Shown here in pieces: positions 30,120-32,514 of a DNA stretch of 34,440 nucleotides. Numbering within the stretch: position 1 is the stretch's first letter; the number at the start of each line of letters is the position of its first letter. The position numbers and the translations under genes are program-made. The DNA is from a virus (Duplodnaviria > Heunggongvirae > Uroviricota > Caudoviricetes). The DNA lies in the IMG/VR virus record IMGVR_UViG_2531839524_000005. The stretch is one strand, 5' to 3'. The notes under the pieces were generated by a model. It did no database searches. It was not told where the DNA came from and saw only the letters and a list, made by a program, of their open reading frames with translations.

Positions 30120-31946
30120 ATGTCTGTAGTGATATCAGGTGCGCTGATTGATGGCGCAGGCATCCCCATGTCCGGATGCCATATTATTCTGAAATCCCGG
30201 GTAAACACCTCAGAAGTGGTGATGCGCACAGTTGCCGACGTGGTGACAGGAAACTGTGGCGAGGACTGTTTTAAGGCGCAGACCGGAAAATATTGCGTAT
30301 ATCTGAAACAGGACTGGCGCGACGAGTACTATGTTGGCGACATTGCTGTATACGACGACTCAAAGCCCGGCACGCTGAACGACTTTCTGACTGCCCTTGA
30401 TGAAGGCGATTTAAAGCCGGATGTAGTGAAACGATTTGAGGAAATGGTGGTGCAGGCACAGCAGAGTGCTGAAATCGCAGCATCATGTGCAGAACAGGCA
30501 GGGCAAATATTAAATAACATCCAGGAGGTTGCAGGGCAGCTTTCCACAGTACGCTTCGAAAATTTTAACGATATTAGCAGGCGGTGTACGACAGCCATGC
30601 TGAAGCTGGAACAACCCGAGGTTGTTAATACATCAATATCTTTAAAAATAAAAGAAAATATCGATTTTAATTATGTCGGTGCAGTTAACGGATATTGCGA
30701 TATTCCTGAACCTGAAAAGTATAAAGTCGAAATGTATGCTTATACAACTGGAGAGTATTTTAACGGCGACGCTAATTTGAATAGTGACGGAACTTTCTAT
30801 TTCAGACGTTGCTGGACGGGAGCAAAACAGTTTCGTCTTATTCGGATTGAGGATAATGCGTGGATCACAACGCTGGAATTTCCGCTGCTCATTCGTAGTT
30901 ACTGGATGCCAGAGGACGCAGATCCTGACGTGATCAGGGTGATGAAAGACCGATGTTACACGTATGACCAGGCGCTGGCAGCACTGGCGTTGATGGTTCA
31001 GCGACATGAAGCTGTGGAAAGATACGTTTCAGGTTTGTGTGCACTTGTTGATGAAAACGGCGGGGTGAAATTTTTTGTTAACAGGCTGTCGGCCATGTCT
31101 TCGCGCGCCTATTATCGACTGGGCAATGCGGCATGGGTTTACTATGCCCTTGCGTTCTATCTGGAGAAATACCCGGACGGAGCACAGGTAAATATTGTTC
31201 GGGCAAAGTTGTTATCTGGCATCAGCTGGCTGGATTCTTTCCTGGTAACCGCCCCTGGTGATTTACGTGAAGGCCTGTATAAAGGCGGCCTTGGTCGTTA
31301 TGTAAATGGCGAATTTGACGCCAGTTTCGTTGCCGAATGGTGCGCACTGGAGCATAACGTTGATATCTGGTTTTTGTTTGAACTGATGGGGAGACTGGAA
31401 TTTGACGGCTTCATTCAACGCGCCGATGCGCTGGCAAAAAGTATCATCAGGGGGTTCTGGATGGAAGAGGAAGGCCGGTTCCGGCAGGGAGTACACCCAA
31501 CCAGTTATGATAACGCGGCGGCTCTTGATCAATCGTCATGGGGCGGGCTGTTTGTAGCGAATATAGACATGGCTAAAGCTGTACGTTGTCGTAAGTATAT
31601 GGGGCGTTTCTTTTTTGGCACCCGCGAAGCCACGGGTTACACACCTTACCACCCCGATTATGGATACAGTGGTCACAGTCGAGGTGTATGGGTGGAAGGG
31701 ACCGCAGGAGTGGCACTTTTTGAGAGAAAGCTTGGAAACGAGGTTACAGCAATGAATCTCATTGCAGCAATGGCACCGCTTCGTGATGAATACGGCTATC
31801 GTGATTCATGCGATGACCCGGCATATGATGTGCTCCCACCCTGGCCATCAACAACAAACACGGCGTGGGTAATCCTGACAGTAAAACCTGATAATTTTTG
31901 GCTGGTAGATTCACCGATCATGGACGTTGGCATGATTCGATACTGA
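30120..31946 (+). CDS. Tailspike / second tail fibre with a glycoside-hydrolase-like C-terminal domain (putative depolymerase)
   Basis: 608 aa. N-terminus MSVVISGALIDGAGIPMSGCHIILKSR resembles prophage tail-fibre N-terminal anchors. C-terminal half is aromatic-rich (WVYYALAFY, WCALEHNVDIWF, DQSSWGGLF), suggestive of an alpha/alpha-toroid glycosidase; unverified. Confidence 0.45.
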   Translation: MSVVISGALIDGAGIPMSGCHIILKSRVNTSEVVMRTVADVVTGNCGEDCFKAQTGKYCVYLKQDWRDEYYVGDIAVYDDSKPGTLNDFLTALDEGDLKPDVVKRFEEMVVQAQQSAEIAASCAEQAGQILNNIQEVAGQLSTVRFENFNDISRRCTTAMLKLEQPEVVNTSISLKIKENIDFNYVGAVNGYCDIPEPEKYKVEMYAYTTGEYFNGDANLNSDGTFYFRRCWTGAKQFRLIRIEDNAWITTLEFPLLIRSYWMPEDADPDVIRVMKDRCYTYDQALAALALMVQRHEAVERYVSGLCALVDENGGVKFFVNRLSAMSSRAYYRLGNAAWVYYALAFYLEKYPDGAQVNIVRAKLLSGISWLDSFLVTAPGDLREGLYKGGLGRYVNGEFDASFVAEWCALEHNVDIWFLFELMGRLEFDGFIQRADALAKSIIRGFWMEEEGRFRQGVHPTSYDNAAALDQSSWGGLFVANIDMAKAVRCRKYMGRFFFGTREATGYTPYHPDYGYSGHSRGVWVEGTAGVALFERKLGNEVTAMNLIAAMAPLRDEYGYRDSCDDPAYDVLPPWPSTTNTAWVILTVKPDNFWLVDSPIMDVGMIRY

Positions 31947-32064
31947 ATCAGGCGCAAGTTGAGCGCAACGATGCGATTTACCAGCGCCAGCGGGAGATGA
32001 AAAGCGAGTTGAGTAATCTGGAGAATTTGAAATCGATTAGAGATCTCAGACTAGATTGATAGAA

Positions 32065-32098
32065 GCCGCGGTTCATTGTATGCAAGAACGAACCGCGG
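32065..32098. repeat. Perfect 10-bp inverted repeat with 15-nt spacer
   Basis: gccgcggttc (32065..32074) and gaaccgcggc (32089..32098); no adjacent T-tract on either strand. Confidence 0.6.
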
Positions 32099-32171
32099 CC
32101 GACTGGTAAACTTTCGATCTGGATGCGCAATTTTCCGGTGATAGATTGAGTGGTTTTAGGACTTTTGGAGT

Positions 32172-32221
32172 GGGGCAAAAATGGGGCAAAACGTTGCAAA
32201 AGGGGCAAAAATGGGGCAAAA
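32172..32221. repeat. Four direct copies of GGGGCAAAA in 11-bp phased pairs
   Basis: Copies at 32172, 32183, 32202 and 32213, with a related ttgcaaaa at 32194; in the noncoding stretch between the last phage gene and the host-like genes. Confidence 0.6.
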
Positions 32222-32514
32222 AAAATGTAGGTTATCGTGATTTATTGTAGTTGTGGATGTGTCTTAACATTCTGAAAAATAAATAAAAATCTTGTGTGTC
32301 AGATAGTTGTAGTTTTTGCCCTTACTTGTTCAGGTTGTATTGTTCTTTCTTACTAATTTCTTGATTTTGCGACATTTAAAAGCGACTCAATTCGTTATAT
32401 GGCATCAGAAGAGTATGCGTCATGCCGGAACGCCCAGCATAAGAAATCTGATATAAAAACTGTGGCGTGTATGGTACGGATTAGAGGGGAAAATGTCAGC
32501 ACATTTGCGAAATG

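Follow-up and report, generated by a model that had tools for sequence, protein, structure and literature searches.

Receptor-binding proteins set the host range of phages, and engineering for phage therapy and diagnostics targets them more often than any other part. In Ur-lambda, a ring of twelve collar domains around the tail tube holds four trimeric fibres, and the lambda side tail fibre Stf itself has a long coiled-coil shaft and a gp37-like, OmpC-binding tip, with Tfa as its chaperone (PMC12617516). The lambda collar binds at the gpV tube protein/gpM junction of a non-contractile tail. In the Vibrio myovirus XM1, the collar spike gp40 (7kjk) binds neck proteins as six trimers (PMC10457771). 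The alpha/alpha toroid depolymerases described with DepoScope and in a Klebsiella prophage survey combine an N-terminal virion anchor with a polysaccharide-degrading fold. This class has been recognised computationally, is rare (11 of 984 proteins and 29 of ~3,900 domains), and was omitted from model training because of too few examples (PMC11326577, PMC12491483).

Here we describe a 608-aa protein encoded in IMG/VR virus record IMGVR_UViG_2531839524_000005 (Caudoviricetes; the whole stretch of 34,440 nucleotides is referred to as the window). As a first-pass annotation made from the sequence alone had proposed, the protein joins a fibre-type anchor to a glycosidase-like (alpha/alpha)6 domain; phage mosaics of this kind are already known, and this one is an uncommon example. 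The features of the locus are listed in Table 1.

The mosaic gene, its anchor and its prophage

The gene belongs to an E. coli prophage at the ttcA/uspF (Rac) site, a temperate phage whose early and lysis genes are lambdoid and whose tail is contractile. The prophage contains a sheath gene (PHROG 205, E 5e-54), as well as baseplate hub and baseplate J genes. At its right end, strains with a Rac-type element align from ~32174, and strains with an intact ttcA next to uspF from ~32326, where chromosomal sequence begins; the mosaic gene is the final one ahead of the right attachment site. Upstream, a complete fibre and chaperone pair was found as first annotated, the chaperone being well supported (Caudo_TAP in Pfam, E 6.5e-24; PHROG 136, E 1.8e-60), and only 24 nt separate the chaperone gene from the mosaic gene. 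We found no promoter-like site on the + strand between 29900 and 32560, and thus none ahead of the mosaic gene, which, having no promoter of its own, is probably transcribed with the tail operon. The inverted repeat that follows the DUF4376 remnant has no T-run and was not reported by the terminator scan, and may possibly be a transcript-end hairpin.

Table 1. Features of the mosaic gene and its surroundings (positions in the window; aa, residues of the 608-aa protein)
Feature	Position	Strand	Basis
First tail fibre of the contractile-tail prophage, 461 aa	28163..29548	+	PHROG tail fibre families, gp37_trimer
Tail fibre assembly chaperone for the first fibre, 181 aa	29551..30096	+	Caudo_TAP, PHROG 136
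Mosaic gene, predicted second receptor-binding protein, 608 aa	30120..31946	+	ORF list
Collar (anchor) domain, beta-sandwich, aa 1-91	30120..30392	+	phmmer, Foldseek
Linker and start of predicted helical stalk, aa 92-129	30393..30506	+	PF08400 end, end of blastn homology
Acquired cassette, aa 130-608 and stop codon	30507..31948	+	blastn break points, PHROG
Predicted beta-sandwich domain holding the AT-rich patch, aa 145-255	30552..30884	+	strands 146-253 in model
Predicted (alpha/alpha)6 barrel, putative glycoside hydrolase, aa 270-608	30927..31943	+	fold
3' remnant of DUF4376 partner gene, 36 codons and stop	31949..32059	+	RefSeq, blastn
Perfect 10-bp inverted repeat, GCCGCGGTTC ... GAACCGCGGC	32065..32099	.	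read from sequence
Prophage right end, arm common to Rac-type prophages at the ttcA site	32174..32326	.	strain alignments

The N-terminus had been likened to prophage tail-fibre anchors over ~40 aa. The likeness is borne out, while the length is not: residues 1-129 match PF08400 (phage_tail_N, prophage tail fibre N-terminal; E 1.2e-59). Within this region, residues 1-93 align with the collar domain of Ur-lambda Stf (9e7m_Ta; phmmer E 3e-16), and Foldseek matches the modelled domain to PDB 9e7m (E 2.9e-7, TM 0.85 target-normalised, 44% identity). With 42-44% identity over ~90-120 residues, the same fold, and a helical segment next to it in both proteins, the anchor domain is a homolog of the lambda Stf collar. 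A single-sequence PDB search returned matches to the anchor only. The collar domain also resembles the N-terminal Ig-like domain of XM1 gp40 in Foldseek (E 5.8e-6), with weak sequence similarity (phmmer E 0.037, both proteins aligned from residue 1); as a weak match, gp40 is the only precedent for such a domain docked on a contractile-tail virion. The phage of the mosaic protein, unlike lambda, has a sheath, and its collar docking site therefore cannot equal the gpV/gpM site of lambda.

Beyond the collar, the mosaic protein differs from lambda Stf in having a stalk of ~40 residues, an (alpha/alpha)6 barrel as its predicted tip, and a truncated partner gene. The model contains no long coiled-coil shaft or gp37-like tip, only two short helices (100-119 and 124-139), which are predicted with low confidence, as is region 92-143 overall; Pfam likewise gave no fibre-repeat match in the 608-aa protein. 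The helical stalk, at about residues 100-140 of the model, probably trimerises.

Exchange of the module behind the anchor

For comparison, we used two sister phages deposited as complete genomes, Escherichia phage Rac-SA53 and vB_Apl-pPE4, whose baseplate J protein is 98% identical to that of the window. For the virion of Rac-SA53 we found no literature, its published mention concerning other matters. Both genomes have the same layout, namely fibre 1, chaperone, a gap of 23-24 nt, a PF08400 fibre, and a DUF4376 protein, and their tail3/tail4 (Rac-SA53) and gp69/gp70 (vB_Apl-pPE4) genes belong to the same lineage, slot and spacer as the mosaic gene. Their second fibres (1061 and 667 aa) carry Phage_fiber_2-type C-termini and are followed by an intact 187-aa DUF4376 protein, whereas in the window a beta-sandwich and barrel cassette takes this place, and the DUF4376 gene, the partner of the original second fibre, survives only as a remnant. 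A layout with two receptor-binding protein slots is conserved in this lineage, in line with the earlier suggestion that the phage would carry two such proteins, and the phage of the window probably carries a second, possibly enzymatic, host-recognition protein.

The extent of the exchange can be read from blastn alignments with the sister phages. DNA identity is 90-93% up to codon 129 (nt 30506), where the alignment ends, and it resumes only at 31949, which is within the DUF4376 remnant, at the stop of the mosaic gene. The remnant is a pseudogene in the RefSeq annotation of an identical locus, and its blastn homology is to Rac-SA53 tail4 and pPE4 gp70 at their 3' ends. The incoming segment matches PHROG 13714 (aa 130-608) and PHROG 7032 (aa 130-602). 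Recombination at codon 129/130 put the cassette in place of the ancestral shaft and tip of the fibre and of most of the DUF4376 gene, which agrees with the module swapping first proposed. The locus is an instance of module exchange resolved to a few nucleotides, in which a standard anchor keeps its slot and the business end is replaced.

Homologs of the cassette (aa 130-608) occur behind at least five other N-terminal types, including PF12571, PF18668, PF03406, PF25613, and ones without a Pfam match. For the copies in a P2-like prophage and in a lambdoid Stx2k phage, homology sets in close to the start codon or within the anchor, and stops at the stop codon. The lambdoid copy, in phiSTEC1575-Stx2k, encodes a 78% identical protein and occupies the stf slot downstream of J and lom. 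In enterobacterial prophages, the cassette invariably forms the C-terminus of fibre-type proteins; it is self-contained and apparently needs no chaperone.

The window also contains an AT-rich segment, which had been noted at about 30620..30800 and read as separating the two modules. The segment is real: GC is 0.34 at 30600-30799 vs. ~0.5 on both sides, and GC3 is 0.25 in codons 167-227 (30618..30800) vs. 0.49-0.54 in the remaining gene. As a module junction, it is ruled out by the blastn break points; the patch (aa 167-227) lies inside the incoming module, within the beta-sandwich, and is allele-specific.

The mosaic gene could instead be cargo or a recombination leftover, encoding an unassembled protein of the lambdoid stf type that is released as a free enzyme at lysis or has no role. 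Such an explanation would account for the terminal position of the gene, for an anchor of lambda side-fibre type in a phage with a contractile tail, for the truncated downstream partner, and for homologs that occupy the stf slot in a lambdoid phage and the very end of a P2-like prophage. However, the sister genomes keep the PF08400 slot right after the chaperone with its short spacer, the anchor DNA closely matches theirs up to the junction, the N-terminal module has a dN/dS of 0.07-0.20, and transcription is probably shared with the tail operon, all of which make the cargo explanation very unlikely in our view. A more specific version, in which the gene was left behind by a lambdoid prophage of Rac type that had occupied the site earlier, was rejected as the principal interpretation, since the sister phages keep the slot and no break separates their anchor DNA from that of the mosaic gene.

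Fold and conservation of the C-terminal barrel

In the model, residues 270-608 adopt the (alpha/alpha)6 barrel fold of the six-hairpin glycosidase superfamily, and neither a beta-helix nor a non-enzymatic fold devoid of hydrolase similarity was predicted. The parallel beta-helix catalytic domain of classical tailspikes (P22 type) is absent, so that the term "tailspike" used in the first-pass annotation does not apply in its classical sense. With a virion anchor and a C-terminal domain of a polysaccharide-degrading fold, the protein has the modular build of depolymerases. We found no literature on a six-hairpin fold in a phage tail fibre.

At the sequence level, Pfam searches with the whole protein and 17 family members gave no curated family for residues 130-608, the only hits being stray TPR matches and one GH127 match. 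The best match of the family profile in PDB was MmpH (7qsj), at 14% identity and an E value of 0.08 that is non-significant alone; because the profile reached only this value, no sequence-level family assignment is made. MmpH is an endo-alpha-1,4-mannosidase of Mycolicibacterium hassiacum, and differs from the mosaic protein in being a cytoplasmic, single-domain enzyme whose substrate is a methylated storage polysaccharide. A weak third stretch of the alignment (domain E ~140, non-significant) pairs E526 with MmpH Glu262, which was identified as the catalytic base by mutagenesis (PMC9883506). Across 132 homologs, each below 45% identity, residues D283, E411, H412, D415, D470, and E526 are 95-99% conserved, and they are located where the first helix of each of the six hairpins begins, at its N-terminus. 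In the (alpha/alpha)6 fold, the active-site funnel lies at these helix ends, and the conserved residues would, judged from secondary-structure positions only, cluster in one pocket. The homologs with these conserved residues come from phages of Enterobacteria, Microbacterium, Thermus, and Coprococcus. Purifying selection on the barrel is strong (dN/dS 0.07-0.08 at dS 0.66-0.81). Together, the fold, the conserved acidic residues, and the purifying selection suggest depolymerase activity and a role in host range, as had been proposed.

The same fold is also found in epimerases, isomerases, lyases, terpene cyclases, and non-catalytic proteins, and the barrel may thus be lectin-like, i.e., an enzyme fold that only binds a surface glycan or protein and makes the mosaic protein a plain adhesin. 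The many non-hydrolases of this fold and the lack of a significant match to any curated glycoside hydrolase family are consistent with mere binding, and a binding site would fit the strong purifying selection equally well. Nevertheless, the five acidic residues and the histidine are conserved across phages of very different hosts, which would be unexpected if the barrel only recognised host-specific receptors, and the weak profile alignment puts E526 on the proven catalytic base of MmpH. We therefore regard a non-catalytic barrel as unlikely.

The barrel family comprises 486 clusters at 50% identity, of which no biochemically characterised member was found. The domain is present in only 16 of 50,697 phage records, and is relatively conserved across Escherichia, Salmonella, Citrobacter, and Yersinia. 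A BFVD search gave one full-length-like viral match, the unnamed protein F9VHN7; nearly all other matches cover ~300 aligned columns or fewer, and the named ones among the short matches are tail-fibre N-termini (i.e., the anchor). Two matches are giant-virus glucosidases. In Microbacterium phages, distant homologs of the barrel carry the annotation minor tail protein; others are fused to T4 gp5 C-terminal spike repeats or to a podovirus nozzle protein.

Both the gp5 spike and the nozzle lie along the envelope-piercing axis, and in T4 the equivalent place on gp5 is taken by a lysozyme. These fusions raise the possibility that the barrel is a virion-associated envelope-penetration enzyme whose target is peptidoglycan, or a glycan of the periplasm or wall, and not a receptor at the surface. 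Here, however, the barrel follows a side-fibre collar anchor and a short stalk, off the tail axis, the tape-measure-like protein of the prophage already has a transglycosylase/endolysin-like region (PHROG 873, PHROG 7182), and the enterobacterial copies invariably end fibre-type proteins. A penetration role for this protein consequently seems improbable.

Proposed role of the mosaic protein

Our preferred interpretation, which we consider reasonably likely, is that the gene encodes a second, interchangeable receptor-binding protein, with a lambda-Stf-type anchor and an acquired, active glycoside hydrolase barrel that cuts a host surface glycan. The collar (residues 1-91) would fix the protein to the virion, and the short helical stalk (~100-140) would be followed in each chain by the beta-sandwich (145-255) and the barrel, the assembly being deduced from the model. 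The barrel would be an active glycoside hydrolase of an uncurated family, akin in fold to MmpH and clan GH-L (GH15/GH125), in which Glu526 would serve as catalytic base and the acid would be an Asp, for instance Asp283. The enzyme may bind and cut the O-antigen, capsule, colanic acid, or enterobacterial common antigen, which would provide a reversible first attachment and a cleared path for the baseplate fibre. The cassette class is rare and biochemically unexplored, an (alpha/alpha)6 barrel in place of the usual beta-helix, and, if active, the barrel would add a further enzyme family to those degrading enterobacterial surface glycans.

A wider reading, which we offer only tentatively as a possibility, is that both the collar is a cross-morphotype socket and the barrel founds an uncurated family of virion-borne glycoside hydrolases. 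That the barrel follows an anchor of lambda type in three tail architectures would suggest that the attachment system is portable. If the socket is real, one anchored protein could mount on lambdoid non-contractile, Rac-SA53-type contractile, and P2-like tails, so that receptor-binding modules could pass between tail types without re-adaptation. If the barrel does form such a family, its enterobacterial spread would point to a common envelope glycan (enterobacterial common antigen or colanic acid), not a serotype-specific O-antigen.

The mosaic gene is also present in eight complete E. coli chromosomes, at 99.7-99.9% identity. Strains hosting the prophage include enterotoxigenic E. coli O169:H41, which makes the prophage relevant to phage traffic in this pathogen lineage.

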